The notes: generated from the letters alone by a model not told the origin. Shown: positions 10,845 to 60,222, counted from the whole stretch's first letter. The stretch is DNA of 61,224 bases, filler included, from Dugesia japonica (GCA_001938525.1; 4 parts of 4 records of this genome joined end to end with filler, not necessarily neighbours in it); one strand, 5' to 3'. Translations and numbers: made by a program.

Positions 10845-10853
10845 ATAAAAAAT

Positions 10854-11366: not shown

Positions 11367-11372
<6 letters not shown>
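11310..11372 (-). tRNA. trnE: mt tRNA-Glu (TTC)
   Basis: tt-TTC loop between cox1 and nad6. Confidence 0.6.
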
Positions 11373-12951
<1,579 letters not shown>

Positions 12952-13299
12952 AGAAGATAGCCCCCAAAGCCCGTTGGACCGGTGCCAGAACTTATAAAAA
13001 GAATTATAACGATACACAAAAGAGTAGTAAAAAAATTTTTTAATAATTTTTATTTATTTTTAAAAATATTTAAATTAGATCAAAATTTTTAAATAAAAGT
13101 GGAAAATTTTGTTTTCCACTATTCATGTTAAGACAATTGTACTATTTTTAGTGGATTTATAATGACATCAAACGAAAAACGGTCACTTTTGAGAAGTTTA
13201 CAGTAATTGTGAAAAATATTTTTTTCTATTTCAAAATAATACATTCAATATTTCTTATTATTCTTCCATTATTAATTAGTTTTAATTTAAAACTCTTAT

Positions 13300-20813: not shown

Positions 20814-20826
20814 ACAATAATAATAA

Positions 20827-20878
<52 letters not shown>

Positions 20879-20890
20879 TAATAATAATAA
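20814..20890. repeat. (AAT)n microsatellite
   Basis: Seen directly. Confidence 0.95.
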
Positions 20891-23440: not shown

Positions 23441-23449
23441 ACAATCTCA

Positions 23450-23790
23450 ATGTTATTTAATTATTTCAATTCAGATCGACAAAATAGGTAAAGAATGGCT
23501 AGGATCAGATTGGTTAGGAGTATATTCATTAGACAAAATTCCATATATTCCAGTTTAAAAAGTAATAATCGTCAGTTCTCAGTCCTCAAACATCAGAGGT
23601 GCACATTGGTTAGCAGTTTATCATAAACCGGAACATATACTAGTATTTGATCTATTTGGATTTTATTATCCACCAATACTTGTCTTGGAACTATCAAGTT
23701 TATCCGAGCCTATTATCTATAATAGAACACAGTACCAGCAATGACTAACGAAAACATGTAGACAACATTGCCTAATATGGCTAAGAAAAC
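23450..23790 (+). pseudogene. Polinton adenovirus-like cysteine protease
   Basis: WLGVYSLDKIP...GAHWLAVY...VFDLFG...YNRTQYQ...TCRQHCL gives the His/Asp/Cys triad pattern; lies directly after the integrase. Confidence 0.8.
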
Positions 23791-23989
23791 AGTATGGTGG
23801 ATGAAATTTTGTATTGAAATAAATGTATTGTATACAAAACGGTGTTACTATTTTCTTTGTAATTTTACTGTACGTTTTATTAAGAATATTTTTATTATAC
23901 CATTGGCAATGAGAAAAGATCAAAAGATCATGAGAATGAGATCAACGCCTTAATAAAAAAAATTCATAAATGGAAAAAGTATTTATTAT

Positions 23990-24701
23990 TAACTTCAAAT
24001 ACAGTCCAGATTATTAGAAAATCTGCGTATTTGTTTTTTTGAATTTTAAGTCAAATGATTTGAATTTTATTATCCTAACTTGATCGATTTTGATCAAGGT
24101 GATTATACTCTACAATTTAAATTTGCAAATTGAAGTATAATCTTATTTAATTTTGTAATTTTATAATAATACAATTTACATATCGCAGTTGCGAAATTCC
24201 AAATTAAAATATCTTAATTGATTATCTAGTAAATTTTAACAACGACTTAAGCTAAATTTCAAGTGCGAATTCAATCAATAACTCTAATCTAATTAATTTC
24301 TGTTTTTTCTGTGCAGAAACAACTTTTTATTTATATAAATTTGTGACCAAAAAAATAATTACTTATTTTGGCTTGGCCAATAAAATAAATTATTATAATT
24401 AGACAATATCTATTTTTGGTAATTTTTATATTCCCCAATTTGTACATTTTTAAATATAAATTACTATTTTTGTTAATTATTTTTTAATTATTATTTTAAA
24501 TACTATTTTTAGTATTTAATTTTGATATTTATTTATTTTTAGTAATATAATACATTTTAATTCTATTTTTAGTAATTTCTTAATTTTTCTATTGAATGAC
24601 TGTATAATTAATTATTATTAATTATTATCAATTATTATCTATAATAATATTTGCTTGTACAAAACATAAAACTGAGGCAGGATTCACACAAAACCTCATA
24701 T
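23990..24701 (-). mobile_element. Partial inverted copy of the TGTGAGGTT solo-LTR family (see 42304-43523)
   Basis: GGATTCACACAAAACCTCATA and CAGTCCAGATT...AATCTGCGT are near reverse complements of sequence at 42304-42325 and ~43015-43040. Confidence 0.6.
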
Positions 24702-25869
24702 TATTGAATTACCAAAATAATTCTTGTATAGTGGACATGGTCCTAGAAAAAAGTAATCTTATATTTACCATAAATATTACTATACAACTTTAATTACTTT
24801 TCCATAAATGATGCCAGAATACCACGAGAGTTGCATTAATAAAATAAAAAGCAAAGAAAAAACATACAGTACTTAAAATATACCGAAATTGTAATTATTT
24901 TTCATAAGAAGCATGGCATACCAGGTATCACGTTTCTAAAATTTATACTAAATAAAGAAAATATTCATAGAAAATAGAGAAAAATAAGGATAAATATAGA
25001 GAAATAGGAAAAATTTAACAAAATATGGAAAAATAGAAAAAATGGGTAAATAGTAGTAAATAAGGACAAATATTGAAAATGATGAAAAATAGAGAAAATT
25101 GATGAAAAGTTACAAAAATTGATAAATTTAGCATATTCAATGACTATATGTACAGAATTAATTTAATTCTTGGCGAGAAGATTTACGTTTTATAATATTT
25201 TCTGTGCAAACTCATACTTTCCAATGATAAAACTCGTATTTTCTATGATAAGACCATTATTACAATGATAAAGTTAGTACTTTGAACGTGGAACCATTAT
25301 TGTCCATGTTGAAACTCATATTTTCAATAACGAAACCATATAATAATGTATAAGTTTTAGTCAAATGACTGATTTTACTGACTGATAATTAGGCATTTAA
25401 AAGAAAATAAACCCTTAAACCCATAGTACATGAAGGAACTAATGAGCAATCAGAGATGCAAACAGATGATTATGAATGAAATATATTTTATTGAAAAGGA
25501 TACATATAATTAAAACAGAGTCTAAGTGACACGTAATAAATGCACACGTATAGTCTATTACATAATCAACAACATGATATTTGATCTATTATATAATAAT
25601 TAATTTATAGTTGGTATGTTTAGTAAGAAATAATCCACTGGAAAAGAAAAAGAAGAGAAGGATAAAATAAGTATGTTTGAGATAAAACCAATAAAGAGTA
25701 GGAGAGAAGAATATTAAAATTACTAATTTATTTCTATAAAGATTAGCAGTACCTATCTTTTTTAATCTTCTCTCTCTCTTTTCTGGTGGATTATTTCTTA
25801 TTTAACATAGCAATATTAATTATTACATAATTACTTGATATATTCATCCTTATTAGAAATTAAAACTAC

Positions 25870-26330
25870 AGCTTGAAGTTATAGTTATTAGCGATTATGA
25901 AACAATGGGTTAGGTCGAGGTATCTGATAATCCAGTTGTTGATCCGATTGTTGGTTTGATTGTTCATTCAGTTAATGTTCCGACTGTTGATCTAGTTGGT
26001 TGTTCTACTGATCTTGATACGGAAATAGGTGATGAATACAAGGTTTTAAGTAAATTTTTAGAAGAGGAAGCTCAAGTTAGTGCTTCTCTTAATATTGATG
26101 ATCCTGTTGTTGAAACTCATTTGCATAAATATTATCGAATATTAAAATAAGATGTTTCTAATTATAATATGAGAAAAATTGATCTGACTGAAAAATTAAT
26201 AAAGAAATTATTTGGTTTAATTAATTAAATGAAACATGTTAAAATTCAATTCTGTATATAAGTTGAATTTATTATGGATGAGGAAATAAAGACTTGTAGG
26301 TTATCTAATAGAACTGTTTCTTTGACCGAT
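25870..26330 (+). pseudogene. Polinton pPolB N-terminal fragment (second copy)
   Basis: KFLEEEAQVSASLNIDDPVVETHLHKYYRILK*DVS matches KYLQEVQVCGSLDESVIETDLHKCHQILKLDVS at 30095-30388. Confidence 0.65.
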
Positions 26331-26373
26331 AATTTCTTTTATGTAGTTAGTAAATGTTGGGTATTTAAACTCA

Positions 26374-26803
26374 TCAATACAATTTTATGTATTTTTGTTG
26401 TAATGCGGGTGTTAGATAGGCAAATCTAATGCAGTTGTTCTGTGGCGTCTTAATTAATAACGTGGATGGTACGAATTGACCTATTTCTGGACTTTTCTGT
26501 TTCTGGAATTCGGTACGTACTAAATTTTGTCTGTGAATTTTGCATGATCTGGAAGAGGGGCATGGTAAAATGTCGGAGAAGGTAATATCGAAATATTGGG
26601 TAATACACGCAAAACAAAAATAATGGTTACATTGTGCTATTCTGGGTAAGAAGGGTTGGTCGTAACAAAAGTGACATGTAGGATCGTGTTCTTCAAGTAA
26701 TGAAATTAAAGCGATATCGCGCCAACTATATTCAAATGGATTTACTGTTCCTCTGTTTTTTGTTTACGATTATATTATTTTTATTTATTTTATTTTGAGT
26801 CAT
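26374..26803 (-). pseudogene. Intronless RING-HC finger gene, RNF10/Mag2-like
   Basis: Frame missing from the ORF track: ...WRDIALISLLEEHDPTCHFCYDQPFLPRIAQCNHYFCFACITQYF...PCPSS...IGQFV. The ATG at 26803 is separated by a one-base slip in an A-run. Confidence 0.7.
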
Positions 26804-26809
26804 GCATGA

Positions 26810-27270
26810 AATTTAATTTCTTGTTTAAATTGATAGATATTTATGATTTCTTGTTTAATTAAGGTTAAATTATTTATTTTTTGTTTGAATTAAGTGAAAT
26901 TAATTATTCTTTGTTTAAATTTAACATAATTAATGATTTTTTAAGTAAATTAGTTGAAATTAATTATTTTTTCAAATGAAGGGAAATTACCCATTGTTTA
27001 ATTTAAATTTCCCCCGAGAAATATTAAGATTAGTCTCGCCGGACAATATTAATATGAATATAAGATACTCAACCGGGCAATATTAATATTAACATTAGAT
27101 GCTCCCCAACATAATATTAAAACAAATATCCTCTGGGCCGACATTTTAATATCATTAATATCCCCGGGCAGACATAATATTAACATTAATATACCTCATG
27201 CAATATTAACATTAACAATAATATCCCCCGGGAAATATTAATATTAAGATGATATGCTTTTCGTCAATAT
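26810..27270. repeat. Two blocks of ~31-bp tandem repeats (Polinton subterminal type)
   Basis: TTGTTTAAATTAAGTGAAATTAAT-like units, then AATATTAATATTAACATTA..CCC.GG units. Confidence 0.7.
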
Positions 27271-27449
27271 TAGCAATACATAAAAATATAAATACATAAA
27301 AAACCCATAAATGAATCAGTTTGATAGGTTACTTAATCCGATTCATTTTGTTTTTTCGCCTGATTATTAAACAATCAAATGAATTTCTAATAAATTCAAA
27401 TAAATTCAATACCTGTATATTCTATTGTTGATCCAAAGTCTTATTTATT

Positions 27450-30400
27450 GCGGTCAAACTATAATGTCCGTATAGAACACTGGTGTTTTCATGTGTCTAT
27501 ACTCTCTTATCGTCATTTTTGGTCAATGCTATTTTTGGTCCCATAAAGCTATACAATTAGTGGTTTCTTGTACCTATTCTAAATTGATTTACTGAGACCG
27601 GTTAATTGTTGTAACAATCTAGATACGACTGGTGTGTTAAGTCGCTATCTTTTAATGTTACCCCCTAAGCCTTCATGCTAGTCTTTTCGCCAAGGAGACT
27701 GTAACATTTCGGTCTCAGAAAATCCCATTCCTTATATTTTACACCTTTGCTTTCGTCTTTGAATTTCCCTACTATTGAGTTCAACTTGTTATAAAGTGGA
27801 TGTTATACACTATAATTTGATGTGTCTAACAACTCGTCCTGAACCATCAATTCTAGTAATCCTTCCAACTTAATGTCTTTTACTTCCAGGAAAAAGCTGT
27901 CGGTATTGCCTGCCACTATATTTATCGGTCATTTTTCATCCATCTGATATTTTTCAAGCTCGTTGTATTGGAGGTTATACATTCTTAGCTTACTCAAGTC
28001 CAACACTGTCTGACCAATATAGCTTGGACGATTAAGACAAACTGTATCCTTTTTTTAGCAATACCGCAATGAAATCCTGGTCTATTTTAACAGTTTTTCT
28101 AAAGTTTGGCTTCGAAGCGTATGTAATAAGTTTCTTGGCTGAATTGCACAATCTGAGATTCACCTGTTTCTTTAGATTTCTACTGTTTTTCCGTAGAGGC
28201 TGTCTAAAAGCTTGTAGTAATTTTTGTCTAGATCTGATGCACTTATGAATGTTAGTTCAGTATTTTCATCTATATACTTCTTCAAAATATAATCTTGTGT
28301 GAATTTAACGGCTCTATGTATTTTAACAATCTTAAAACCAAGTTGTACGTACAGTTGTAGTAATCACCAATGTACAACATAATTAAATTTGGTATATTGT
28401 GTTAATAATAACTTATTTACCTGGTATTTCAATATCAACTTCTACTGTGTAACCATACGATAATGAGTCTAGATCCGATGTTCTACATTCCATTGAAAAT
28501 CCATATATGGTAATTTCTGACTTAATGCTCACCCGTATAAGTTATTTATATCGATGTACAAAAGCTCAATGTTTTCTTCAGCTTTTTGACGATTGTAAGT
28601 CCACCTCTGATTCCTCCATCGAAAAATATGAACATATCATTGTCTGTAAGTAATTCAATAGGATCCTTTAGGATCATCAATGCTGATGCCCTGCTAATCC
28701 CTGGAATTCCAAAGAATGATAATGGCTCCAGTCCGTTGAGTGCTAGCGACTTGGCTCAAAATTGTTGAAAAAAGTCAGCTAGGAGAAATACATCTAGTTT
28801 TAGATAAACCATCATGTAGTCCGGTAAATTCTTGCATCCAGTAATAGTCCACATTTCTAGAGCCTTCTGATACGATTCTTCATTAATATCTTTCCATATT
28901 GGCGGCATACATTCGGTTTCTTCCAACACGGTCAGGCTTGTAGCAATGTCATATGGAATAATTCCCTTTGATTTGATAATTCTGTAGTCAATAAACTCCT
29001 TGGATGTTAATGGAGTTGTTTTAATTGTTTTAACAGCCGTGTCCAAGAAGCTATTGATAAACTGATATGAATCAATAAACTTCATGGTTACCTTTTCCAT
29101 AAACATTGTTGGTAAACATGAAATATCGCAGTGAGAAAATTGATTGAGTTCATATTTTAATATATGGTGCAATTCATAACCTCTAAGATTATGCAAGACT
29201 AAATGTAATTCATATAGAACTTTTCTACTGAGATTACATGTTGAACATGCAGAACCTAAGTATTTACTGGTTTAATGATCATGGTCTCGAACCGGTTTAA
29301 TGATTATCTTCTTACATAAATGGCAAATAGTCGTTTCTTTGAATTTAATATCTTCTTCTGTTGTTATTTCAATCTTTTCCTTGCTATTTTCTTGATAGTA
29401 AGGGTATACAATGTTCTTGGTAATTTCTTCAATCATTTTCAAGAAATTGTAAACCCAGTCTAATCCGATTAATTGATGTTATTGAAATTCATTAGTAAAA
29501 GTATTTTCTAACAAAAGTCCTGCTGATATATTTAGATGTTTCTGGTAATTTTCAGGATCCTTCTCTAGCACTGATTCGAAATCAGCGTAAATTACATAAG
29601 GTGAAGTCATATTTTTTGAATAATCTGTAAATATTAATTCTTTTTCTGTAGGCATTTTATAAAGAGTGGTTCCCGTTTGTATCTTTTCACAAATTGGTTC
29701 ATGGATCTGAAAAGATTTAGTTTATCTAATTCCATTCAGACTATTGGGACACTAGATTGATTGAATTCCAACACCATTCTTATTAATATCTCTGTTCATC
29801 AATCTATTTAAATTTACCACAGCAATTTAATGGAATTGATTGCGTTATTTGAAATTTATTTGAAATTTTTTTCCAATATCCTACTAAGAATCCAGCTACT
29901 TACTAATTCGCTTCTTACAACGATCTTCTCATTTAATACTCTAATTCCCTCTTTGAAAAACCTTTCACTAAGTAGCACTATTAGATAAATGACAATTTTT
30001 GATTTCATCTCTTATGAACTCAACATGAATTCCAAACTTAACTTTTACAAACCTTCATTTCTCCAATTATTTTCTACCAAACTATCTGTTAAAATTATCT
30101 CTCGCATGTTAATCTTGAAACATCTAATTTCAAGATCTGATGACATTTGTGCAAGTCGGTTTCAATAACAGATTCGTCCAAAGAACCACAAACCTGTACT
30201 TCTTGCAAATATTTTTGTAATACTTCTTCGGCAACATGTTCCTCATTAAGATCCTCTTCATTTAGTTCTTCAATTATTTGAATATTATTCCAGTCCATTT
30301 CTTTATTAACAACTTCTGGTTCGATAAAAATTGGTTCATTCTTGATTATTTCTTTCTCAATAACAATCACTTCATGGTGGACCATCAAGAATTTCCATTA

Positions 30401-31781: not shown

Positions 31782-32207
31782 CTACACAGGAGTTTCATTA
31801 GCGGGATCAGAGTTTTTGGCATTGTTTTTTTCGACCAACTCGTGAACACTCCAGAGATGGTTTTGAATGAAAGCGCCCAGTTCAGAATAGGGAGGGATCT
31901 GCTCCGTGGACATACTCACAAACGAAGAGCCTTCTTGCCATACTCGAACCGTCTGGGGTTCCCCATTGATATCTATTTGGGTAGTGGTAACGGCGTGCAG
32001 GACTGTGCGGGTGCGATCTGGTCCGTCGGAGTTATAGTAAGATGCACGTTCGTTCGCATCCCATTCCAGTTCGTCGTTAAGTTCCTCCAGCGATAAATTC
32101 TGTCGTTCTACTAAAACCCCGGCATCTCTATTATGCGGGTTTCAGTACCTTTTAAATACGGTACGCCCCGTGCAGTGATCCAATACGACTTCCAATTTGA
32201 ATTCCAT
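31782..32207 (-). pseudogene. Element ORF C orphan (copy 2)
   Basis: ttacag|ATG, then MEFKLEVVLDHCTGRTVFKRY*NPHNR...YYNSDGPDRTR...LWSV...ETPV*; homolog at 44814-45233. Confidence 0.72.
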
Positions 32208-32365: not shown

Positions 32366-32545
32366 CTATTCGTCCATGTCCTTATTTAACTTTAAGGGAA
32401 ATAACTCGACGAAACATAGTAAATCGGTTTCGTCGGGGTGTTCTATCTGTTAAGGGAATAGTAGATGAGTGATTAATTGTTTCATCCGGGTGGCTTTTCT
32501 CTGCTTCTGGATCAATCTGAATGTGCGTAACAGTTTTGCCGACAT
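32366..32545 (-). pseudogene. Element ORF D orphan (copy 2)
   Basis: MSAKLLRTFRLIQKQRKATRMKQLITHLLFP*QIEHPDETDLLCFVELFP; homolog at 44492. Confidence 0.7.
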
Positions 32546-35324
32546 TCTCTAAATTAATAATCCATAAACACTTTTAAACTCATTAAAACCTGTCACTATA
32601 TCCAATGAGTGACGTATAAAAGAAACATTCATCGTCCTGCTACTACCGACAACCCCTGAGTAAATATAAACTTAATAAAGGGTTGTGGGGGTATCAGTGT
32701 TGCTAACCATAATAATCATCAATAGAAGATTAGTAGGAGGATAATATAATTAATAACAAAAGTAGATAATAATATTATTAATTTTAATTGTAACAGTTAT
32801 GGTAGCAAAATTAATGAATTTGCTGACGATAATAATGAGGATGTCCTGAGTAGTAGCAGTAATAATACCCGCGCAAAAATTGCTCATAACCACATTATGG
32901 CTGGTATATTAACTATAAACATGGAACTAGTGAAAAGAATGATAATTACGTTACATCTTTAACGACTAATTCGATATAGCATGAATATTCTATAGTGATC
33001 CGCGAATTAGTGAGTCTAAACTCGAAACCATTGATTGAAAACGTAAAAAATAAATAATCTAAAACAATTATCCAGAATTATTAGTCGAATTAGAGTAATT
33101 GCCTATAATCATGGTGAAATAAAAACAGCTCTTAATTTGTAACTATAAAGTTATTGATATTATAATAATTCAAATATAATAACTCCTTATTAATTTATCG
33201 ATAAATTTGCGTAAAAAATAAAAATCTAAACATATCCATAATTGATATTTGCGATATCATCATCGTCGCGAGTCATGTATGATACGAATGTTTCATCGAT
33301 GTGAAAATTAGCTTGAATTCGATAAAATTGCTGGACTCCGGAATTGCGTAAAGCATATACCTCAATCGTGTGATAGTTAGCATCCAACAACAAGGAACGT
33401 TGTCACCAGTATTAAAGATCACCAGAACTTTATATAACTCTTCAATGTGAGCAGTTATAGAGAGATTTAGAATCAGAAGTAATCTACTACAGTAAAGTGT
33501 AATGCTACTTATGCACACCATTAAAAAAAAACATATCAACTAATTTAAGTGATACTTCAATTCTTGTGTGTGATGACTCAATTCCTGGTGAAGTGATGAG
33601 TGGTTTACATACTGGTAGGCAATGAATAGTTGTGTCAATTTTTTCTCTTCACTAAAATAGCTTAATATATTTCCACTTAGCAGAAATAAAAAGACCATAG
33701 GTGTCATTCGTAATGTGACGTTCTTTCTCACGATGGAGTTGTTTCTTAATTTGTCAGCAATAAATTTCTGGAGTAATGCATATCAACTCAGAATTTCTTC
33801 TGTAAGACTATGAATTGTAACAAAAATAAACCATAGTGCGTCGATCATACAGGCCATAGAGAAAAACGACAATAGTATTAATATATTGGTCTGCGCATAC
33901 TCGTTAGCTATCATAAAACAAACATAATAATTAAGATCATAATAATTTAACTAATCAATAATTTTTATTAAATTTTCATCTAGTACAACTAATATAAACG
34001 AAATAGATAATTAACACATGCTTACATTTATATAGGTTCTCTTGCTGCAACGAGGATAACGACAGTGTTGAATTAAATTCTTGAAATATTTCTTCGGTTT
34101 AACTGACAAACAATGTTCTCTTCTAAAATGTAGTTGTTAAATGTTATGAGTGAATAATTAAACCACTGATGAATAGTTGGTTGCTTCTGCAATAGTTGTT
34201 ATTATAAAATTGATTGAAGATTTCGTGCGTAACTCTACGAGTCGAGATAAAAATTTTTTTAAGCATATAAATGACTAAAATTCAGGTTGTTTAAATACTA
34301 ATTCTCGATGCATCTCGACACCATTGTTATTGGTTGCTATTTTTAATTCAAAATTCCTGCTTTCCATTGGTTCTGGTGTTGATTTTTCATGGATCTTTTG
34401 AACTTTTATTGTCTTCTATTTTTAAATCACTATGTGATGCTCGGGTCTTTGTTTCATTTTCTTTTTCTTTACACCTTATTGGCCCAATCTTTGAACCCTT
34501 GCAGAACCCCTCCTGGTGGTGATACGATTTTCCGGTTGTGAAATCCTATTACCCAGGTACTTTTTCTTTCCAGTGTTTCTTATTAACAGCTTCTGCGATT
34601 TTGCTGAGCAAAGTAATTCGTTAAATACGGATTTTTGACTAATTTTAATTTATTTTATTTAAAAATTAATTAATATTTTCTGGTAATTAATTATCTTTCC
34701 ATAGTAATTTTCTTGACTTTTATTATTAATCCAATAATTTTTTTAAATTGTTATCATTGATGCGGGTTAGCTTTATTCACCCAAGTTCTTCATATCCATC
34801 TTCACTTTTATTTTACTCTTTTAATGGTTATTTTCATTATATCCTATTTTTGATTTTAATTGCTTTTCCTTTCGAATTCCTTTATTGATAATTATAATAG
34901 CCCTGCCGTCTTTCTTTAATGATATGAGCTTTTTGCCTCATTTTCTTCTCTAACTGGGTGTTTCACCCCAACAAATTTAATTAAAATAATGTAAAATCAA
35001 CATTATCAAATTATTATATATTATAAATCAAAATAATTTAAAATGAATCCTTATCAATTACTTATCATTAATTACTTTGGTTGTTAAAAATTATGAGAAT
35101 GTTATTTCATTTTATTTTATTTTACTCAAACTAATTTTACTAATTTACTAATAAACTAATTCAATTAACATTACAATTAATTAGAATTTCTTACAAAACC
35201 AAATTTTTACAAATAATTACATTTAAAATCATTACAATTAAAATGAATATTACAAATTAAAATGTTATTACAAATAATTCAATAAAATAAATTCATAAAT
35301 TCTAACCTGGTTTTAAATTTAAAT

Positions 35325-36633: not shown

Positions 36634-36890
36634 TTATTATAACGATGTATTATCAAATAAATATTTTTATTAGAATAATAAAGACTTTTAATCATCGCAA
36701 AATAACCGTAGGGAAATTATAGAACCCGAACAAAAGGTTTATAGGTGTGCACCTTCCATAAAGGGTAAGGTCAACCACCATAAACTGAAAACCTACCATA
36801 GGGACGGTAGGGTTAAATTCTTGAAAGGGTTTCCTTGAGGACTGTTTTTTCCCCAGTCACCTTTTTTCAAACTCAGGTGGAACCCCAACA
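36634..36890 (+). mobile_element. 3' terminus of a fourth copy of the TGTTGGGG...CCCCAACA element
   Basis: Ends AACTCAGGTGGAACCCCAACA; last ~170 bp align with 46375-46547. Confidence 0.85.
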
Positions 36891-38818: not shown

Positions 38819-39257
38819 TTAATCAAATTTGCCCAAAAGATCTGCTTCCCGAAATAAATAATATTCCTATGAATAGAATATTAAATACGTCAATTCAAAT
38901 AATTTATACTTTTTCGTCAAGTAAAAGTTTTGTTCCACCATATTCTGGGAGAAAAACTTTGTCACCTATTTTGACAGTGAGCGGCAATATTTTTCCATCC
39001 TTCAATATCATCAATAATATAATAAGTTATATTTAAATAAATTTACATTGGTTCTCATTCCCTCACCAACAGCAAGAACTTCACCTTCCAAAACCTTGCC
39101 TTTAGAAGTTTCAGGTAACATTATTCCTCCTTTTGATGTAGATTGAGCTTCAAACCTTTGGATGAGAACTCTATCAAATAAAGGCAAAAATTTCTTAAAT
39201 GCTTTTGATGCCTAAATCAAAATGTTCATAAGCTACTTTGCACATAAATCTTACCAT
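38819..39257 (-). CDS. HSPE1: 10 kDa mitochondrial co-chaperonin Hsp10, 101 aa, 4 exons (39255-39257, 39047-39211, 38910-38999, 38819-38866)
   Basis: M|ASKAFKKFLPLFDRVLIQR...SKGGIMLPE...VLAVGEG|DGK...GDKVFLPEYGGTK|EYYLFREADLLGKFD*. Three GT-AG introns of 43, 47 and 43 bp, all phase 0. Confidence 0.96.
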
Positions 39258-39281: not shown

Positions 39282-42200
39282 TTTGTATTGACTTTAAATA
39301 AACAACTAAATTTGTGTTTTTTCAATAGAAAGTTATAGAAAAATTTTGTGAATTAAAGTTTTTACATAATATTGTATATTTTATAAATATAATGTGCTTT
39401 CAATATATTGAATTATTTTTTTATTTATAGTATTTTACATTGAAATTTTATGACAGTTTTATTAAATATTTTGTCATTGCAAAATAAATTTGTTACAAGT
39501 AAAATTTATCTTTTTTACTATTCGTTTATTAAATAAAAGCGTCAACAATCAAAAATATGTAATAAATTATATAAATATTTGTTAAGCGCTGATCTATTAT
39601 CAAATATAAATTTCAAAATGCGAGAATCCAATTCTACCTATTTTCATAGAAGACTGCTAAAATATTGAAAAATCAAGTAAATAAACTTTGATGTTATTAT
39701 TTTAAAAACTGTGTATTATATAGCAGTGGTGCCCAACCTTTTTAGAATACCATTTTTTTAAAAATTATAAGGATCGACAAATGAGGTTTATGTATCAGTA
39801 GTATTACTTATATCGTATTTGTTTGAATTTAAAAGATATCCATCATCACATTTAGTAACATGAAAGTTAAACAGAATTTTTAAAAATGACTTAATAAAAT
39901 GTAAATTAAGAATGATCTTTTATTGCATTAAACTTCATCTTCGATTGCAATTTTTCTCCAAAGAACTGATTTGTGGTTTTTAATGATAATATCGACAGTG
40001 ATACTGAAAATGTCAGTTGCAATCGACATGCAATTCCAATTGACAGGTTGGAAACTATCATACTTATTTCATAACTTTTATTATAATCCTTAAGATTTTA
40101 GGTTATTAGTATTTTGTTCATTATTTATATCATTATAACCGCAAACATTTATCGAAATCTTGGTGACTTGTATCCAATCCTTCAGGTTCAACAAGTAGGT
40201 ATTAACTCTTTAGATTTCGGACGCTTGATGGTTGATGTTGTCTATTGATGTCTAGTACGATAAAATAATGTGAGAAATCAACTTGCTATTATTCGTAGGT
40301 CTATATGTATTGTTTCAACAGAAATTTAGGGGTTCAGAATAATTAATTTTGTACATCCGAGTAGGACTTAATGGTGTTAGGACTGTTCCTTCCTTTTAAC
40401 TTAGTGATTTAGTTTTTCAATAACCCCAGTAGTTCTTTCTGTTTTCTCTTCTGTTGTATCAAAGTAGCAATTAGAATTGGATATCTTGCGAAGCGGATGC
40501 AGTTGTTGTCATTGTTTTGTAACTAATTAACATTAGGCTGGAGATTTAAGACTAATGTAAAATCATTAAAGTAAATATATTAGATTTATCGCAATTGCAG
40601 TCTTATTCACGCCTTTCTGGTATGTTCATTATCTCTTAATGTTATTAATTTTATTTACTTGAGTACCTTCATCCTAGAAAATTAAGTATTTGTGATTCAA
40701 AAAATCATCACTATCTCACCACTGTTTATGAATGATTTTGGAAAAATTAACAGCTTATATTTACTTGTATTGGGGTGCAACACCCGTTTGGTAAAGAGCA
40801 TAAAGCCCAGGAGGCCTAAATCAGAAAGTAGTGAAGGAGGGGGGTAAAAAGAAAGTTAATTAGAACTAATTATCATTTGGTTAAACATTATAATAATTAT
40901 ACTAGAAAAAAGATCAGAAAGAACGATAAACGGCAGAAAGAAAACATCAGATGAATAAATACAATCCTGATCAACTTCAATAATTAAAGAAAATTAAAAT
41001 TTATTAAGAAAAAACAAGAAAATTATTATTGAAAACATACTTAATTAGGAGGAAAAAATTAATTAATTTTAGCCAAAAAAGAAGTTAAATTAGATGAAAA
41101 TCAGTTTTTGAAGGATATCTTGGCTCAAAAAAATCACAAAGGATCATAGTAAGAAAAACTGAAAAGAGAAAGTTTTAGGGCAATAGAATTTTGCAACAAG
41201 AAAACTTTACCATCGTCAGAAGATTCATGAAAAGGGTTTGAAAATTCGGCCAATCACAGTCCAGAAAAGAAACAGAAAATAAAGGCATAAAAATCAAAGG
41301 TGCTCCAAAAATAGGGAGCAATAATGTAGTAGAAAGTTGTCAAAATTTTTAGCATTTTAGACAAAACCCCAATCAGGAATTTGGAACAGAAAACAAAAAT
41401 AGATACCCAATACGAAGAGAATTGGGTTGTAAAGAAAAGGGTATATAAACCCTCCGGAAATTTAGAAGAAAAATCTCTCATTTTACTGAGTTTTGCTAGT
41501 ATTATGGCATCGGAATATTATTACTTTAGAGAAAACAAAAATTCTTCACCGAAAAATATTTAATTTATTGTTGAATTTTACACGGTAAGATCATCATTTC
41601 TAAAAAACTAATTCATTGGCGTAACATTTGAATTTCCAGAGAAGAAATATTCTATCAATTAACGAAATAAATTTAACAGCCAAAACCGACCACTAATTCC
41701 AAGTGAAACACTTTTATATTTTAAAGATTAAACCATTGCAGAAACCCTTTTTTTAACAGTAAGTGTGGTTTGTCGTATTATATTATTGTAATAACAATCT
41801 ATTGGTAAATAATAAATATGTTTAATGCTGGATTTATGTATTTTTTATATTAAATTTGTAGGAAATAATCATTTTAATCTATAAATCATAAAGTAATTAA
41901 AATACATTAATAAAAACCTTTATTTTTAACCACTTAAAGTGACATGAAGAATTTAATCTAGGGAGTGAGAACGAAAAAGACAACTAGAGTGGGTATGTAT
42001 CATGATCGATGCCTATTTAGATATTTTTCAGTGAGAAATTTAGTTCACTACCAGTCGATGATGTAGCACTATGAGAATTGTACCAAATTATTATGCTTCT
42101 ATTAAAATCAATAACATAAAATCACTCATAATTAGGCATGCATAAAAAACTTTTCAACACAGCACGGATGAGTCATCCTAGTACGGGTATCGAATCAGTA

Positions 42201-42303
42201 GCACAGGTTATCATTTATTCAATGCCATGTTGGGCAAAACTATGTTACTCGTCAGAAAGAATCATAATTTTTACTACAAATGTTTAAACTAACTCAAACT
42301 GTA

Positions 42304-43523
42304 TGTGAGGTTTCTTGTGAATCCTATCCCTAACATTATTTTCTTTAATATTTTTTTATAATAATATGATAACAATAATAACCAGTTAAATAATTAATAA
42401 GAAAATATATGATAGTAATAATTGTAAATAAAGAATTTGGTTAATAATAAATAATAGATAATAGGATAAAGTATAATTGCAAATAATATNNNNNNNNNNN
42501 NNNNNNNNNNNNNNNNNNNNNNNNNNNNNNNNNNNNNNNNATAATATTAAGTATAATAATAAATATAACAAAATAAAAATAATAATAAATTTTTTTAATT
42601 GGGCTTTGTTTCAAGCCGGTTAACTGTTTTAAGTTAGGTGACTAATAACTGTTACATGAGAGATTGTTATTGCAGGATTGAGAGTGTCCAAATTTGGTGA
42701 TGTGTGTTCATTTCAAAATCACCTAATTTGGACATATGCTATCTGTTACATACAATTTGATTGGTTGGACAATTATATATAATTGCAACCAAATAATCAA
42801 ATCGGCAGATAAAGCAGAACACAAATTAATTGTTTACAAAAAATTTGCTACATTTATTGAGAAAAGGTAAATTTAATTTTTCCTAAAATCCAAATTTAAT
42901 TTAAAAATTTCAGTTATATTTCTAGCGTTGAGAGGCTAGTGAAATATAATCCTTCGATCTACAGTATCGAGTTAAGTTTAAACTAAATTAAATACCTAAA
43001 ATCGATAAAGCAAACGCAGATTGTTACAATCTGGACTAGTTGCTTTTAAATAACTAAAAAGATTTTCCATACATTCATTTTTTTTATTAAGGCGTTGTGC
43101 TAAAAAACGGTGAGTCAACGTTTGTTTATTTTTGAGCAATTGCTCTTGTATACTCTTTACTTCATAGGATCACGCTGATTAAAGACTAGTAATTTTTGAT
43201 ATAAAATTTGTAGTTTTATTTATTTTGATATTTGTTATTTGTGATAGATAATACATTTTTGAAAGTTATTTTATTCATTTTTACATTTTTGTATTATTTC
43301 ATAATAATAATTAAAATATTGCAGTTCTGGTCAGAACTTACAAAGTACAGATCGAAATAAATATTAATTCCTTCCAAACTCATTTAATTTCCGCAACCGG
43401 AAATTAAATGATTTTAGACTCAGGTACTAGCACCCAGTGTGAGGAACCCTAAAATCATAGTTACATTTTTTCAATACTTTTTAATTACAAAAAACGCAAC
43501 CAAACACATTTTTGAACCTCACG
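42304..43523. mobile_element. Nested solo LTR of a second family
   Basis: Termini TGTGAGGTT...AACCTCACG; perfect TGTA duplication at 42300-42303 and 43524-43527. Confidence 0.8.
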
Positions 43524-44491
43524 TGTATTATAATGTTGGATTTCTCTAAATATAAAGTGTACAATCGTCCCATTATGTTAAATGGAGATATGAATGCTAC
43601 ATAATGTCGCAAATTCGCTTTGGGTCATTTTCTTTCTTCTTTTCTTTGAAATTTATGAATGAATAAATCAAGTAGTGATGCCATGTACCTATAATCGTCA
43701 AGGTAATTCACATCAATGAATAGTGGAGCTCATGAGTGATAACACGGTCATGTTGGGAGTGGAATAATTTTCTATTCTCGCCATGAAGATTGGAAGAATA
43801 GTTTTACTGATAGGATGGAAACTGTTAACAAAAAGACAATCCCAGTAATCTTTGACAATCGATTAACATCCTCACAATTCATGTTAGCGGCAGAAACAAC
43901 ATGGTGTGTGCCATTTATTAATTTAGTTATCTTTTGGTCGATTATCAATAATAAAACCAACCATTTTGTTGTTATTATCATTATATTTGCGGTGAATATA
44001 ATTACTATTATGTTATTACTAATAAAATTATTATTAACGGTGAGATTGTTACTCTTATTACTATGAGAAAGGTTATTTTATTATAATTTATATTTACAAA
44101 TATTTCGGGCGTGCTCATGATTTACCAGTAATTAAATTCACTTTATCAACGTATCTACTACTACTGATGCCGTGAATCATCATTATTAGCATTAATCCCA
44201 TGAGCTACGGCATGGTTATTAAAATTCTAGTAACATTAAAACAATTATCGGTGAAACAATTACGGGTATTATCATCTCTTTGATTACCATATTTAGTACC
44301 GCTATAATTTTGTGTTAATAGTGTAAGTACTAGATTAGCGGAAACACTATAGTTACCTTCTTTTTTTTCCAGGATTACATTTAGAGTTCGGGTAATGTAA
44401 AATGAATGTTTTCCGTTACACCCATACACGAATCACCTGAATCTTTTAGAATCTGCTTTGCTAATATATTAATAAAGGAACAGATTTCCCC

Positions 44492-44779
44492 ATGCTGGAC
44501 ATTCTAATCAGAACCCTCCTGTTGATCCTACAAGAGCGAGAGAAATCCCGTAAGAAACAGTTAATCGGCGATCTACTCTTCCCTGATCTAGTTCTATCTC
44601 CGGATGAACTGGATCTGCAATGTTTTCAAGAGTTATACCCCTCCCCTGGGAAGTTGATTTGGATACCGAATTATGACCACCCATTGATGTTTCATTGTAA
44701 AATAAATCATCTCATCGTTAAATCTCCTTTCTCTTTTATTAAATTTTTGCCATTATATTTGATATCATTTATCGACTAA
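44492..44779 (+). CDS. Element ORF D orphan (copy 3)
   Basis: MLDILIRTLLLILQEREKSRKKQLIGDLLFPDLVLSPDELDLQCFQELYP is homologous to 32366-32545. Confidence 0.6.
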   Translation: MLDILIRTLLLILQEREKSRKKQLIGDLLFPDLVLSPDELDLQCFQELYPSPGKLIWIPNYDHPLMFHCKINHLIVKSPFSFIKFLPLYLISFID

Positions 44780-44813
44780 TTCATGTCGACATATCAATTT
44801 TCTTTCAGTTATT

Positions 44814-45233
44814 ATGGAGTATAAATGGGAAGTTATTCAAGATAAGACCACCAGCCGAATGATATTCAAAAAATACCTAAATCCCTATAACCGGGTTTTG
44901 ACAGAGAGGTTCAATTTTCCTGCCAGGGTTGCGTATGAAGATAAAATGATGGACGCCACTGATCGTCAGGCGTATTACCACTAGACCGGTCCCGATCGCA
45001 GCCGTGTTACCTTCTCTGTAGGAATGATATCCACAGACTACATAAATGGCGTGCCGATTTATGAGCGGATTTGGAGAGAACACATACCTCCTCCTTTAGC
45101 ACCTATCATGACTCCTGTATGATTAGATGGCTTAGTTAATGACACGCTATGGAGTGTTCGTAATGCTTCAAGTGGCGGCAGCGAAGAAAATGTCGATCTA
45201 TCCCCGAGTGACGAAACCCCAGTAAAAACCTGA
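44814..45233 (+). pseudogene. Element ORF C orphan (copy 3)
   Basis: tttcag|ttattATG, then MEYKWEVIQDKTTSRMIFKKYLNPYNR...YYH*TGPDRSR...LWSV...ETPVKT*. Confidence 0.72.
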
Positions 45234-45426
45234 TTCATTGATGATCCTTGTTATGTGCAAATAATATATTATCTTTATATTATTTAATATCTTCCTTATT
45301 TAATAAACAACGACATTATATTGGTTAGATAAACTTTACTAACGCATTTTTACAAAATTTAATCATCAATAAACAACCTGACCTGAATTGCTACTCGTCA
45401 TTTAAATGTATGATTTACTTTTCTAG

Positions 45427-45785
45427 TGCATTCTTCCTTAAACCGATCAGTCACCCCAACAAAAAAGATAAGAGAAAGTAGTGACAACAACGAAATGACG
45501 TGGGACTTATATCGTCTCCCCAAGCGTCTTTAGGAGACTGACTCCACGGCAGCAGAAAGCAAAGTGAAGCAGTACAAAAATAAGTGTGTTGCGTTTAGAA
45601 AAGAAGCCGAAGCCTATCACACTCAGGAAATGCTTTGGAAAAGTCAAGTTGAGTCGTTCGCCGAAATTATCCTGTCCCTCCATGACCGTGNGAATAAACT
45701 GGNTGAGGACATTCTTGTATTAAAAAAAGCCATGCCGCTTGCACCATTAATAATCGGCAAAGGCACACAGACGGCGCGGCCATAA
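45427..45785 (+). pseudogene. Element ORF A (copy 3)
   Basis: ttctag|TG, then HSSLNRSVTPTKKIRESSDNNEMTWDLYRLPKRL*...KCVAFRKEAEA...LKKAMPLAPL; AATAAA follows the stop. Confidence 0.75.
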
Positions 45786-45941
45786 TGTCATTGAGTATTC
45801 ATTTGGTGCATAAATAAAACATCTTTTGTGTAGTCGGTTTGATTCGTTTGCTGGGTAAATAATCCAATTCATGGACTTTTATTATCTAAATAAATTTTAA
45901 GATTATTACCTAATCATTAATTGAACTCATTTCTTTTATAG

Positions 45942-46302
45942 GGACCAGAATTCAACTTTCAACAAGCTTAAGTCGCTGATATCGTCTAATACAAAAACTG
46001 CTACTCGAACGACATATTAAACGGCAAGCCAAAAGGACCTGTTACGTCAACTCACACAGAGGAATCGTCTAGTTAAGAAATTAGATTCCATAATAAAGAA
46101 ACAAAGAAAGTTGGCGGAACAAGCCAAGCAAATCTTGGAAAATAAGATAAATTTCTTAAATGTATATATCGCAGATTTATCCAACCAGTTAGAATTGGGA
46201 ACGGGAGCACGCTGGAATCCGAGTGACGATGAGGCCGCATTCAACTTGATGGATGGCAAGCCCTCCCAGTGGTTAGACCCGGGTGCTCTTAATTATATAT
46301 AA
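45942..46302 (+). pseudogene. Element ORF B (copy 3)
   Basis: ttatag|GG, then TRIQLSTSLSR*YRLIQKLLLERHIKRQ...LAEQAKQILENKINFLNVYIADLSNQL. Confidence 0.75.
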
Positions 46303-47289
46303 TTTAACACAAGATGAATGTTAATCTAAATTTATTATTGTTTTTTTTAATATTGGTAAGAAAAGCGAAAAATAATGAACCCAAAACAAAGGTACACGAG
46401 TGAGCACTCCAAGTAAGTGTTGGGAGTCAACCGCTCTATAATGAAAATCTAATTAGGGACATTAGATAAATTCTTGAACGGGTACCCTGAGGGCTGTTTT
46501 TTCCCCAGCCAACTTTTTCTACCACAAACTCAGGTGGGACCCCAACACCTGTCTTTGTTGTTTGTTGAGTTCTGGCCGTTTTGACTCTGGCCATGCGAGT
46601 TTTTTAAATTATACTATAACCAGGATAATATACACACAAATTAAATTTGTGAAACTCTATTTAAAGATTGAAATGTTGATCGATATAGACGAGATGCATC
46701 CCTAGTTATTCGTATCTGAATTAACAAAACATTTCGTCGCCGTATATTTGATTACGATTTACATATATAATAATTTATTTTTAATTCTTTATTTAGGATT
46801 TGGTTTTGATTTTCCCCTTTTGAGTTCATTTTTGTTATTTGCAAAGTCAAAAGAACTAAATTTAAAAAGCTTTATTAAATTACAATTCATTACTGTTAAA
46901 ATGTATCTTCGTCGTTCGTCCGTTTATTATTTCGCCTTAGAACTCCTTTATTTACATCCTTTTCATAACCTTATTTTATTTTTGTCATTATGAAAAAATA
47001 TATAGAACTTATTTAAAAGTTTTTTAAAAAATTTAATTAAATGTTTATTTTGTTTTATCATGAAATTATTATACTGTTAGACCCTGAGACTTTTATCGTT
47101 GTTATTTATACTTTCTGTATTTTAGGACTATTTATCTTTTCTTGCCAATTGTCTTGTCTGGGGGATAATACCTCAAAACCGTAAGAACCTCATGAACACC
47201 AATTTTACCATTTCCGGATTCAACAAGATTACGTGGTATCCCATGATATGAATCTCAGTTGATTCTCCGACTTAGTAACTCTTCCACGT

Positions 47290-47560: not shown

Positions 47561-50500
47561 AAACTATTATAATTACAATTATTGTGAGAATAATTTTTGG
47601 ACTTAACCATTGATCGCATTTGAGATTTCATTAAAATAAAGAAAAAGCTTCGATCAAAAAAAAATGTTTTTGTAAAAAAGTTATTTGTAAAAAAGTTCAA
47701 ATTTTCGACAATAGTATTTTTCAGGANNNNNNNNNNNNNNNGATATATTCAATGCAATAGATCTTTGTTACTTAATTCTTTAGATTTTATCGACATTTTA
47801 TTGGTTTATTTAATTATGAATTTTAACTTTTATTATTAAATTTACTTTTTAAAACTTTTTATTCGATATTAATTTTTATGTTAAGAATTTTTAAAATTTT
47901 TTTTAATAACAATTATTATATATTATTTAGTACATATATTATATTTAAAATTTTTAAAATTTGTGTTGTTTTTGGATATAAATTTTAAATTTTAAAAATT
48001 TATTTTGTTTTTTTGTGTTTGTTTTTGAAAATTATTTACTATATAAATAATAAGTATTTTATTTATGTTATACTCAAACGGCAATATTTTTAACCAAATT
48101 TTTTAGAATCAATTAAAAATAGAATTATTTTTATATTAAAATGAATTTTTTAAGAATCAAAAAAATTAAGACTTAAAATGAAGACTTAAAAACTAATTTT
48201 TTTCTTAAAAGTTTCTTTCAAATTCATATTAAATTTTTTTATTTAATTCATATTATTTAGTNNNNNNNNNNNNNNNNNNNATTTTAAACATATTATTTAT
48301 TGATATTAATATAACCTTTTATATTTTCAAATATTTTTTAAATAATGTAATTGTTGAACACCACATTTATCTGGGGTTTATCCTCTTTAATTAATATTTG
48401 TTCATGTTTTTTTCTGTGAAGTTTATGGTGATATGGTGTATTGTAATATGGTGAATTTTTGGTGATTTTCTGGTAAAACATTATGTTTGTTTTGAAATTG
48501 TTTGAACAAACAAAATAAAGAAATTATTAATTAATATAAAAACAAGGAAAAAATCAGAAAGAAAATGAGAATCGATATACCTTTGGCTAAGACGCTTGGA
48601 AAATGATTGGGTAAGAAAAATTAAATTGGTCTAAAAGAAATAAATCCCATTTTGTTAATTTTAAAAGTTAAAAAGCCACGAAAAAGTAAAGAAATGGTTA
48701 ATACAGATCAACCAATGAATGGTCAGAAAAAAGAATAAAAACAAAGACAATAAATTCAGATGGCTTCCAAAAATAATCACCAAAAAAAGATGCAGAAAAC
48801 GTTAAAAATAGAAGCTAATCAAATCACAGAAAAATGATCATAAAGACTAAAAGCATAAAGAATATAGCGGTGGTGTCAAAGAAATGGTATAAAAGCCCCC
48901 GAAGTTTTAGGAGAAACCGACATTAAAGATTTTTTTAGCAGTTTTTAAAGGAATTTAAGATTTGAAAACATATTGAATTAATAGACTTACTGTTATTTTG
49001 AATCAATCTCTGTTGCCTATCATATTAACAAATAATTATGTTTTACTGTATATTGTAACATTTAATAAACTGTTTAAAATTTAACCGCTACACTGATTAT
49101 TTTTGTAAGTTTTTTTTTGTTTAATAATTCTTTATTTTTTAATTTTTTTATGTAAATTAATTCTTATTGATTTTTAATAATTATTAAGTTAAAATTTTTG
49201 TAATAAACTATATTTATATGAAAATTTTTAGATATTAAATCAGAGAAAAAATATTAATATTACTAATATTAAAGGCACCTTTTATTCGATTTGTTTAAAT
49301 TTTTTTAATATATTTTTAATTTAAGATTATCATTGTTCTAATAAATCATAATTAATAATGCTCAAAAAATACGTGGTGGTGGATGGATTTAGCAGTTCTA
49401 TTTTAATAAATGTTAAATTCTTAAACAATTCTAATATTAAGCGCGATGTAATTCAAAATATTTCGTCTCCAAAAATTGGAATCTCCTTGATTATTAGAAT
49501 TCTGTGGATTTCAAAAACAATGTTTTCTTTCAGCTAGAAATTCGTTCGCTAAAAATGTGAAAGCTTCAATTTCTTACATGTACTCACTTCAGATATTTTG
49601 CAATAGATTTTTTTTATTCCAATACACTATAGCTAAGATTGTCGGTATTAACTGAGCTGTTATTTGAGTATTCCTATTATCAAAATCATTAATGATATCG
49701 CCCTGGTTGTCATCATTATTTATTAACACGAATTATTGCTAATAGTAGTCACTATATTTGTTGGGAGTCATTTTCTAGCTTAATATAATTATATATAATC
49801 CCCAGATATAATTATGGCCTTTCAGACTCTCATTATTATGCAATTATTCTGAGTACTCTCGTTTCAATATGATGGTCACCGTCTTGGTAGAGTTTTCCCC
49901 GCGACCATTGACCTTTGATATTCTAGCTGTAGGCTCAAGCCACTGCAGATAATCGTATAATACGTCAAGTCATATTGCTATAATATTTATGGTTAATTAA
50001 AATATCAGCCACGAATTGCCCATTCATCCTATTTTAAATAACCATAAATCATCTAATCGTATGTAATTCCAGGTATACCTAGCATTCCTCATATTGTATT
50101 TAAAAAGATAAGGCACGATCAAGACCTTACGCAATGGCACCAGTTATTGGTCACCTGATGAACCCAGAGTATATACTGACGAAACAAACGTCGACTGTTA
50201 CACTTAGATGTTCCCACTATTACCAACCTCCGACTATTGAATACATTGTTACTACATATTATTAAAACAAACTGTTTATATTAGAATTTGTTTATTTATT
50301 TCATCAAGTAAAATGACACAACATATATAGATGCTGTTTCCCCTAATGAATAGCCGAAATGTTTTTTAGCGGGCGGGAAATCCATTTCGCTGATACATAG
50401 GCATCTTATTAGATAACTAGAATATACTCCCTCCAGATCAGATAAGCCAGTGGAGTGAGGATAGCTTAAAAAGGTGGCTCCACCATAAAATTTGCTGATT

Positions 50501-57880: not shown

Positions 57881-59577
57881 GTGGCNAATGTCAAAATATG
57901 GATAACCTACAGAAACAGTGACTTTTTCTCACGTGAAACTGACAGTCAGCAAACAATTGGGAAGCAACTATTGAAGCAGATATTGGATACGCTCCAGATT
58001 GATCTAATAAAAATGTTTTGAACAAATTTTAATATTTTTTTGTTAAATAAACACATGCCAAAAAATTCATCGTTAATTATGCAGAAACCAGAATCCTAGC
58101 AATTTTGTATGACAAATCCAACAATAAATGATCTTGAAATGAAATCATAAATGCTTATGCTCATTGAAACGATATCACTTTCTATCATAATTCTCTGAAA
58201 TATAAAAGACAATTGACAGATATATTATTTCAAAGCTTTATTCACTAATTAACATCTTGGTTTCACCAGTGTAGTTATCATGTAAAAATTATAGAATTTA
58301 AGTTAAATTAATGTTAGATATCATGCAACATGAAATGATAACTTATTCAAATGGACTTGATAATGATAATTGAAAACAGGGAATTTGAAATGACCTAATG
58401 AAAATTAAATATAATTAGCACCTCTACAATAAACTCAATATGAATTTCACGTCAAATCTTGCAAATAATAACTATTTTGAGAAAGATTTGAATGTCACAT
58501 CTTGAGATAAGAATAAATGATAAATTATTAGTTCGGATAGCATTTACAAGTAGACTGACAAACAGAAGATATATTTTCTGGAAATTCCATACTGGAATTG
58601 ATTTATTCTTTGAGTAAGTTAATTAAATGCAGCAAATTTTAAAAAACCAGAAAAAGTATTTTATTAAACATTTTTAAAAGTTGATGTCAAACAGAGTATA
58701 GATTATAGTAGAACTGTGCAGCATGAATTATTTAGAGTTCTTCATAGTTTTTAATTTAACACTATCAATCATTATTATCAATACAAGCTTATTGGTAAAT
58801 AAAAAGATGATACGTATAACAATCATAAAATACTGCGTAATGAGCGGGAAATTTGTTCAAAAATATCAGTGTAACTGAATAAAATAATTGTATTTAACAA
58901 TATTTTTAACATTTTGGTCGTTTAAACAATTATATTTAATAATATTATTAGCTAATAGTGCATCATATTAAAAATTAAAAAGCTATAAGAATACAATTAG
59001 TCATTTATAATATTAACCAATGATATCTAATAATAATATTAACCAATGATATCTAATAATTATATTGACCAATAATACACACTATATTATTAAACAATAA
59101 TTAAATATGTAGTAATACTATAAGTCAATTTGAATTTGAAAATGAATAGAATTCAACATTATTAAATACCCCAATTAGTCATAATAACAATTTTTTTAAA
59201 AATTTTAAATAATTTTTTTTTAATCGAAGCTTTAATTGAATTTATTCTTTATATATATTTTAAACTAAAATTACGTGGGTCGTGCTTGTAGAGATACCTA
59301 TTTTTTGGTTTATTGTTGATTAATGTACTACATGCACTTAAAATCATATTTACTATTGACTATTAGTCGATTGATTGCATTTCAAAACCGAATACCTCAG
59401 TAAAACAAACTCAATAGCATAATATGTAAATAGTAAATTGAAATCAACATTTTGTAAATTTTAATAATCATTATTAAATGAATTATTAATTGCCGAATCG
59501 TTTTTTTTAATCTACAGGATATCAGCTATAAATTCTAATCGTTAAATTTCTCAATTAATTTCGGGTTTACGAACTAA

Positions 59578-59665
59578 TAATAATCCTTCCATAGGTTCAT
59601 CGACGGGAACCTTGTTACGACTTTTACTTCCTCTAAATGATCAAGTTGGATTGTCTTTTCACAAC
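59578..59665 (-). pseudogene. 18S rRNA 3' end fragment (duplicate beside the gap)
   Basis: AACCTTGTTACGACTTTTACTTCCTCTAAATGATCAAG. Confidence 0.8.
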
Positions 59666-59874
59666 NNNNNNNNNNNNNNNNNNNNNNNNNNNNNNNNNNN
59701 NNNNNNNNNNNNNNNATAATATGTAAATAGTAAATTGAAATCAACATTTTGTAAATTTTAATAATCATTATTAAATGAATTATTAATTGCCGAATCGTTT
59801 TTTTTAATCTACAGGATATCAGCTATAAATTCTAATCGTTAAATTTCTCAATTAATTTCGGGTTTACGAACTAA

Positions 59875-60222
59875 TAATAATCCTTCCNTAGGTTCATCGA
59901 CGGGAACCTTGTTACGACTTTTACTTCCTCTAAATGATCAAGTTGGATTGTCTTTTCACAACAATAGAAATATTGCCATTTCTTAAATCGGAATCCAACG
60001 ATCTCACTAAACTATTCAATCGGAAGTAGCGACGGGCGGTGTGTACAAATGGTTGAGACGTAATCAGAGCAAGTTGGTGAATTGCACTTACTAGGAATTC
60101 AGTTTCAGCTTTGCAACCATACTTTCCCTGGAACCCACAGACTTGGGTTTCCCGCTGACTACTCACAAGAAGATTTAAATTACCTTCGCGAACTGACAGC
60201 TGGCATAGTTTATGATCAGAAA
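59875..60222 (-). pseudogene. 18S rRNA pseudogene fragment with an internal deletion
   Basis: GACGGGCGGTGTGTACAAA and 3'-end motifs are present with substitutions at conserved sites. At ~60100 it jumps to TTTCAGCTTTGCAACCATACT, from much further upstream in 18S. Confidence 0.85.

Follow-up and report, generated by a model that had tools for sequence, protein, structure and literature searches.

The region around the predicted expression cassettes was found to be a repeat element, and its structure suggested that it resembles a solo LTR from a gypsy-type element, with accessory genes that would serve as alternative terminal exons, a reading to which we give about an even chance. The relic itself, 4 to 6 kb long, is best explained as a terminal repeat that belonged to a large retrotransposon. 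The original prediction held that each of four ORFs (cassettes A to D) has its own splice acceptor, usually with a downstream AATAAA, and that one promoter and a shared leader are spliced to these ORFs as alternative 3' cistrons. It turned out to be largely right for A and B and weaker for C, D and the leader.

When the window (the whole 61,224-nucleotide stretch of DNA analysed) was compared with itself, the cassette region was present three times, each copy bounded by TGTTGGGG...CCCCAACA. The copies and related pieces were as follows:

40766-46547, plus strand: copy 1, starting with TGTATTGGGG and ending with CCCCAACA, with an N gap at 42490-42540 and a nested repeat
34973-30659, minus strand: copy 2, 4315 bp and gap-free, with both ends (TGTTGGGG...CCCCAACA) and AATT on each side
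20813-19028, minus strand: copy 3, consisting of 5' block, N gap, A, B and 3' block, with ends TGTTGGGG...CCCCAACA
36700-36890, plus strand: copy 4, the 3' end block only
46367-46547, plus strand: 3' end block, conserved in four copies, U5-like
48520-48916: promoter relic with one CCAAT and the TATA box retained

The element copies in the window are decayed, with stops and frameshifts. A perfect 4-bp target-site duplication (AATT) was found in one of the three copies. Copy 3 was flanked by ttgt and ttat, with one mismatch, within a (TAA)n tract, and copy 1, which may be a scaffold chimera, had no target duplication. The nested repeat in copy 1 (42300-43100) matched 23943-24701 on the opposite strand. 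A second unit starting with TGTTGGG ran from 20891 on the plus strand, head to head with copy 3 over the (TAA)n tract (20813-20891), and several ends within the window lay in AAT-rich targets. The original prediction made no mention of the termini or of the target duplication.

The element ended in TG...CA with a short inverted repeat, perfect over 8 to 9 bp and with a weak likeness out to about 22 bp. Short inverted ends of 8 to 9 bp are typical of gypsy LTRs. Because the termini point there, the element was taken as an LTR-type transposon unit rather than an adenovirus-like unit. Motifs of an internal polymerase II promoter and a poly(A) signal were also present. Linked gag/pol, a primer-binding site and a second LTR were not found in the window, and a purine-rich 5' flank in three reads of run X9 gave only a hint of a polypurine tract. 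At least 3.6 kb lay downstream of the promoter, which is unusually long for R plus U5. The contig depth summed over two runs, which is not a copy number, was 124 to 361 on the 5' block, 55 to 168 on B plus the 3' block, and 0 to 40 over most of the middle of the element; this pattern suggests that many relatives have their ends in common. The 3' end block was considered as a fifth coding exon and showed no codon-position bias between copies; contigs of relatives carried a T-rich, AG-like flank ahead of it. Between B and the end block, copies 1 and 3 had a segment of 110 to 124 nt that copy 2 lacked (at 30844). The ends of this segment (46230-46368 in copy 1) were not GT-AG, and 25 nt inside it were almost unchanged between copies 1 and 3, which suggests a cis element.

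The promoter and the candidate leader donors were located as follows:

41250-41448, plus strand: promoter of copy 1, with CCAAT at 41250, 41369 and 41407 and TATATAA at 41442
34482, 34370 and 34333, minus strand: CCAAT boxes of the copy 2 promoter, followed by TATTTAAA at 34297, in the same layout as in copy 1
41759-41764, plus strand: GTAAGT, a candidate donor for the leader, 317 nt downstream of the TATA box
34025, minus strand: possible counterpart donor in copy 2, GTAAGC, 272 nt after the TATA box

The TATA box predicted near 41443 is real: it lies at 41442, with TATTTAAA at 34297 as its counterpart in copy 2, and three CCAAT boxes accompany it. Measured from the 5' end in copy 1 and copy 2, respectively, the CCAAT boxes were at 485 and 492, 604 and 604, and 642 and 641, and the TATA box had the same offset in both. 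Since the offsets were kept although the 5' blocks of the two copies were only 62% alike, the box at 41442 is credible. Another motif of copy 2, TATATAAA at 34034, was rejected as its counterpart in favor of 34297. The donor-like sites proposed at 41585, 41759 and 34025 do exist, but they carry little weight against a chance rate of one GTRAG per 907 nt. Those at 41759 and 34025 may correspond. No in-frame ATG was found upstream of either, nor was a phase-1 coding leader; the exon before the donor ended in A in copy 1 (41759) and in T in copy 2. Hence, from the idea of one promoter with a shared leader, the conserved promoter was retained, but a phase-1 start from the leader was absent at both donors.

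Cassettes A and B gave the clearest exon-like boundaries:

45427-45818, plus strand: cassette A, with a phase-1 acceptor at 45426, 118 codons, a long helix, a stop at 45783-45785 and AATAAA at 45813
45942-46302, plus strand: cassette B, with a phase-1 acceptor at 45941, no conserved Met, helical
31131-30746, minus strand: cassette B of copy 2, without a spacer before the end block, into which it reads on

The acceptors and the phase-1 entry predicted for these two cassettes were borne out. The acceptor AGs were aligned in all three copies, both for A (45426, 31616 and 20134) and for B (45941, 31132 and 19626); conservation started at these AGs, and all six were entered in phase 1. The downstream sequence opened with TG at five of the six. 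YAG sites at least as T-rich as these acceptors occurred once per 820 to 3500 nt, a rate based on five of the six acceptors, with that of A in copy 3 left out. The reading frame of A and B was closed 4 to 13 codons upstream, and the first 13 codons of A, ahead of its Met, already carried a selection signal (p=0.017 and 0.035). B has no conserved Met, conservation in A already covers the codons ahead of its Met, and both frames close upstream; both cassettes therefore need an upstream exon. In copy 1, A had one internal stop and B was broken by one stop and one frameshift; A had frameshifts in copies 2 and 3. Copies 1 and 3 ended A at the same aligned position by different stop codons, and the stop of copy 2 came seven codons further on. 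As predicted, the stop was followed by AATAAA in all three copies (45813, 31242 and 19754).

The features of C, D and a possible fifth cassette were the following:

44809-45235, plus strand: cassette C, with an acceptor at 44808, an aligned ATG at 44814, about 140 codons and two internal stops
32207-31782, minus strand: cassette C of copy 2, with one internal stop
44373-44706, plus strand: cassette D, with an acceptor at 44372 (or 44478), ATG at 44492 and a conserved core to about 44643
33545-33799, minus strand: possible fifth cassette, in copy 2 only, with a ttacag acceptor, phase 1, about 85 codons and one stop

For C, the predicted AGs were present, but such acceptors are ordinary (one per 126 to 320 nt) and their phase differed between the copies. 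The ataaag proposed for D had no pyrimidine tract; a T-richer pair of aligned AGs was found about 105 nt upstream, at 44372 and 32656, of a kind occurring once per 2695 and 1194 nt. The acceptors of C and D matter less because both cassettes have aligned ATGs of their own, that of D being at 44492 in copy 1 and 32545 in copy 2. In copy 1 only, the frame of D was open to a phase-1 GT at 44697, a candidate donor overlapped by the AATAAA at 44701. In both copies, the stop of C came directly behind the last conserved codons, and no conserved phase-1 donor was found at the end of the cassette, where the only GT was in phase 0. The C terminus read ETPV in copy 2 (31782-31796, minus strand) and ETPVKT in copy 1; we take ETPV to resemble a class I PDZ-binding motif, as found in some viral proteins.

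Comparison between copies showed that differences were concentrated at third codon positions, with 62 of 119 and 51 of 95 in A (p=2e-5 and 4e-5), 63 of 121 and 60 of 106 in B (p=2e-5 and 7e-7), and 89 of 209 in C (p=0.003). The core of D was borderline (25 of 57; p=0.063); against one related contig, 8 of the 13 differences counted in D, with one left out, were at third positions (p=0.035). The pN/pS ratios were 0.29 to 0.31 for A and 0.22 to 0.30 for B, against 0.57 to 1.06 for the 5' block, and no third-position bias was found in the 5' or 3' block. The spacers, 118 to 191 nt long with a GC content of 19 to 28%, were at shuffle level in three of four comparisons, and the A-B spacer between copies 1 and 3 was slightly above it (z 2.7). 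The third-position excess, together with spacers mostly at shuffle level, indicates that the cassettes were selected as protein while the lineages diverged, the decay of the copies in the window having come since. By this measure, A, B and C are under purifying selection across strongly diverged copies, and D weakly so.

A downstream AATAAA was found in 7 of 10 cases, namely, behind A in three of three copies, D in two of two, C in one of two and B in one of three; the chance of one in any 60-nt window is 15%. The claim of such a signal for each cassette thus held in every copy for A and D, but only in copy 1 for C and only in copy 3 for B. We also compared sequencing reads with copy 2 only, at 88% likeness, using four runs. 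A listing of the runs that contain copy 2 named none of RNA, which says nothing about expression. The RNA status of two of them (X1 and X2) was guessed, and the other two (X9 and X12) are recorded as RNA, a quarter of each being used. In these four runs, with few RNA reads, none of the eight joints on copy 2 was a GT-AG junction. Contigs of X1 and X2 crossed the D-C and A-B spacers unspliced, and X9 and X12 gave 31 and 3 reads, all less than 95% alike and mostly at the ends of the element. A joint in X2 (32446-34396) was rejected as a splice junction, having AG at one end and no GT at the other; since GT was missing and the far end lay upstream of the TATA box, it was read as a deleted relative. 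Splicing of the cassettes is suggested by motifs, and the RNA data neither show nor exclude it.

The mechanism that we favor would begin with insertion by an integrase, as inferred from the TG...CA ends, the 9-bp inverted end and the 4-bp duplication. The CCAAT/TATA promoter, whose motifs are seen about 680 bp inside the 5' end, would then start one transcript. A 5' exon ending in phase 1 would be cis-spliced to one of several acceptors, and C, A or B would become the last coding exon, each with its own stop. A would use the conserved poly(A) signal behind it; B lies farther downstream, and its use would require splicing that skips this signal. One candidate for the upstream exon is the leader with its end at 41759; its final A and the TG at the acceptor would together make a start codon. 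The other candidate is cassette D with its own ATG, in copy 1 through the open frame to 44697. As a guess, the products could be accessory factors aiding the element or blunting host control. A broader version is proposed only tentatively. It makes the LTR a self-contained multigene unit with its own promoter and leader, whose orphan accessory genes, four to six in number, would serve as alternative terminal exons and would have been kept by purifying selection across old subfamilies with varying cassette content.

The prediction that A and B are alternative terminal exons gained from their need for an upstream exon and from the stops of A, and no spliced joint was seen for it on copy 2. If the cassettes were instead consecutive exons of one protein, the spacers would be introns, for which 118 to 191 nt at 19 to 28% GC would be suitable, and the motif behind A (behind D in copy 1) would be a phase-1 donor. 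There is indeed a phase-1 GT behind A in copies 2 and 3, where the AATAAA overlaps a donor-like GTAAAT, the same motif as the donor of the host hsp10 intron in the window, and behind D in copy 1. Yet a stop precedes that GT in each of the three copies of A, twice at the aligned codon, and a phase-1 GT is equally expected from a second stop embedded in the poly(A) signal. C, moreover, stops past its last conserved codons, has a phase-0 GT only and an aligned ATG of its own. Because of the stops, we weighed terminal exons above consecutive ones, which appear unlikely. Cutting at each AATAAA with a spliced leader added by trans-splicing at the next AG would make the element a small operon. The distance from AATAAA to the next acceptor, 107 to 144 nt in all six pairs measured, is near the 100-nt spacing of flatworm operons, whose median is 99 bp in Schistosoma mansoni (PMC12582326) and whose distribution in Macrostomum lignano (PMC8629364) has its peak near 100 bp, and planarians do trans-splice (PMC12582326), in the portions of these sources available. 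The leaders described there end in ATG, though (PMC12582326), and after phase-1 entry into A or B this ATG would be out of frame; a conserved Met is missing from B, and in A selection already acts on the codons ahead of the Met. An own start or an in-frame leader ATG was thus lacking for A and B, and C would fit. An operon therefore seems improbable.

The remaining alternatives concern the kind of element and the acceptors themselves. If the unit were a DNA transposon like Ginger, non-autonomous and with passenger genes, its expression layout could be the same. According to the part of PMC2836005 available, Ginger1 and Ginger2 share TGT termini and a 4-bp duplication with our element. Neither paired LTRs nor an internal region was seen in the window. 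Their inverted repeats measure 40 to 270 bp (PMC2836005), against 8 to 9 perfect bp here; no gypsy-integrase-like transposase was found among ORFs of at least 100 aa inside the copies, and the internal CCAAT/TATA block is U3-like, making such an origin distinctly unlikely. Finally, the acceptors could be chance AGs at the boundary between AT-rich and GC-rich sequence, with frames read unspliced from their own ATGs. The aligned ATGs of C and D, the weak acceptors of C and the lack of a spliced joint on copy 2 would agree with this. The AGs of A and B are nevertheless aligned and in the same phase in all three copies next to spacers mostly diverged to background, and B has no conserved ATG, which leaves chance a low probability. 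We therefore retained the solo-LTR-like unit with alternative terminal exons.

The cassette products are small orphan proteins with no homologue in the collections covered. A had none among proteins near its length, and its alignment matched nothing among proteins of 208 to 2000 aa (the 4,873-aa Burro polyprotein is above that range); the alignment of C gave no homologue either. Against 1.84 billion representatives, B had one match (E 7.8e-4), in eleven stretches of a 1307-aa protein, which was read as coiled-coil noise rather than as a homologue. Pfam gave only subthreshold matches for A and B and none for C and D. No homologue of the cassette proteins was found in PHROGs, PDB sequences or phage records, nor in metagenome and viral contigs by protein or by DNA pattern. 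In the ESM Atlas, A fell only into unnamed clusters at 0.90 to 0.91, with low recognition, and C gave nothing. These blanks say little about flatworms, since the collections are mostly microbial. The model of A was mostly helix (pLDDT 76.6) and had no match at E 0.001 among viral structures; that of C was unusable (pLDDT 40). Heptad periodicity was marginal, the value of A being reached by 22 of 300 shuffles and that of B by 13 of 300. A and B are helical and probably coiled-coil proteins. An Rfam search gave no match inside the element.

The window as a whole is AT-rich, animal-type DNA, presumably planarian. About its first 13 kb (1000-13100, minus strand) are of mitochondrial type, with a cox1-like frame open under the flatworm/echinoderm code (table 9) and further mitochondrial-like frames; this stretch is either a nuclear insertion or a scaffold join. 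A decayed Polinton/Maverick-like stretch (23078-30400) adjoins copy 2 and contains a DNA_pol_B_2 piece (28756-29271; E 1.3e-6), a RING finger (26374-26763) and a frame at 23078-23440 that is presumably integrase-like. Pieces of the host hsp10 (Cpn10) gene lie at 38910-39211 on the minus strand, with a 47-nt intron (39046-39000, GTAAAT...AG). An 18S rRNA fragment (59883-60128) is part of a 247-nt duplication spanning an N gap (59419-60128), probably an assembly artefact.

We found no description of genes inside planarian LTRs in the literature searched, although Repbase entries or the Burro paper may already note such ORFs; the available portions of PMC11410931, PMC13238120 and PMC3022928, and PMC6312358 as searched by term, hold nothing on LTR genes. 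Planarian genomes are characterized by giant gypsy elements, which are main targets of PIWI silencing and whose LTRs are regarded as non-coding. If several selected orphan genes do lie behind an LTR promoter, they would give a retroelement a novel route to accessory functions and would provide candidate effectors for tissue-specific defects upon element derepression. Should the LTR be a multigene unit, each solo LTR remaining in the genome would bring along an expression cassette for regulators encoded by the element, and the proteins in question would be translated from GLT2-type transcripts that appear once PIWI is lost. If the operon reading were true, a transposon would be exploiting host trans-splicing.

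Among known systems, splicing in complex retroviruses to acceptors in the LTR or close to it yields accessory proteins, and MMTV sag and HIV nef are retroviral ORFs in or over the LTR. Those ORFs belong to U3, ahead of the promoter, and an LTR usually has just one, whereas here at least four cassettes lie downstream of the promoter. The adenovirus major late unit combines one promoter and a tripartite leader with alternative acceptors and poly(A) sites, to which the layout proposed here would be analogous; it differs in that its genes are viral and its leader is non-coding, while A and B need coding input from upstream. Closer to the host, Burro/GYPSM1 elements are described, in the part of PMC6431247 available, as giant planarian gypsy LTR elements with thousands of copies, an internal region of up to 25 kb, a total of more than 30 kb and accessory ORFs, and they are proposed to be integrated proviruses; from these sizes, their LTRs would be several kilobases long. 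Compared by description, Burro has extra domains in its polyprotein and an upstream accessory ORF (PMC6431247), whereas here the genes are inside the LTR. GLT2, like GLT a Repbase transposon of Schmidtea mediterranea, is derepressed in neurons after smedwi-2 RNAi, according to the available part of PMC8532177, and its qPCR primer had no match in the window at up to 3 mismatches. On the reverse strand, the GLT2 probe in Table S1 of PMC8532177 runs, within its first 400 bases, from an AT-rich spacer through a T-rich AG and TG into an open phase-1 frame, a layout that, judged by eye, is that of A and B.
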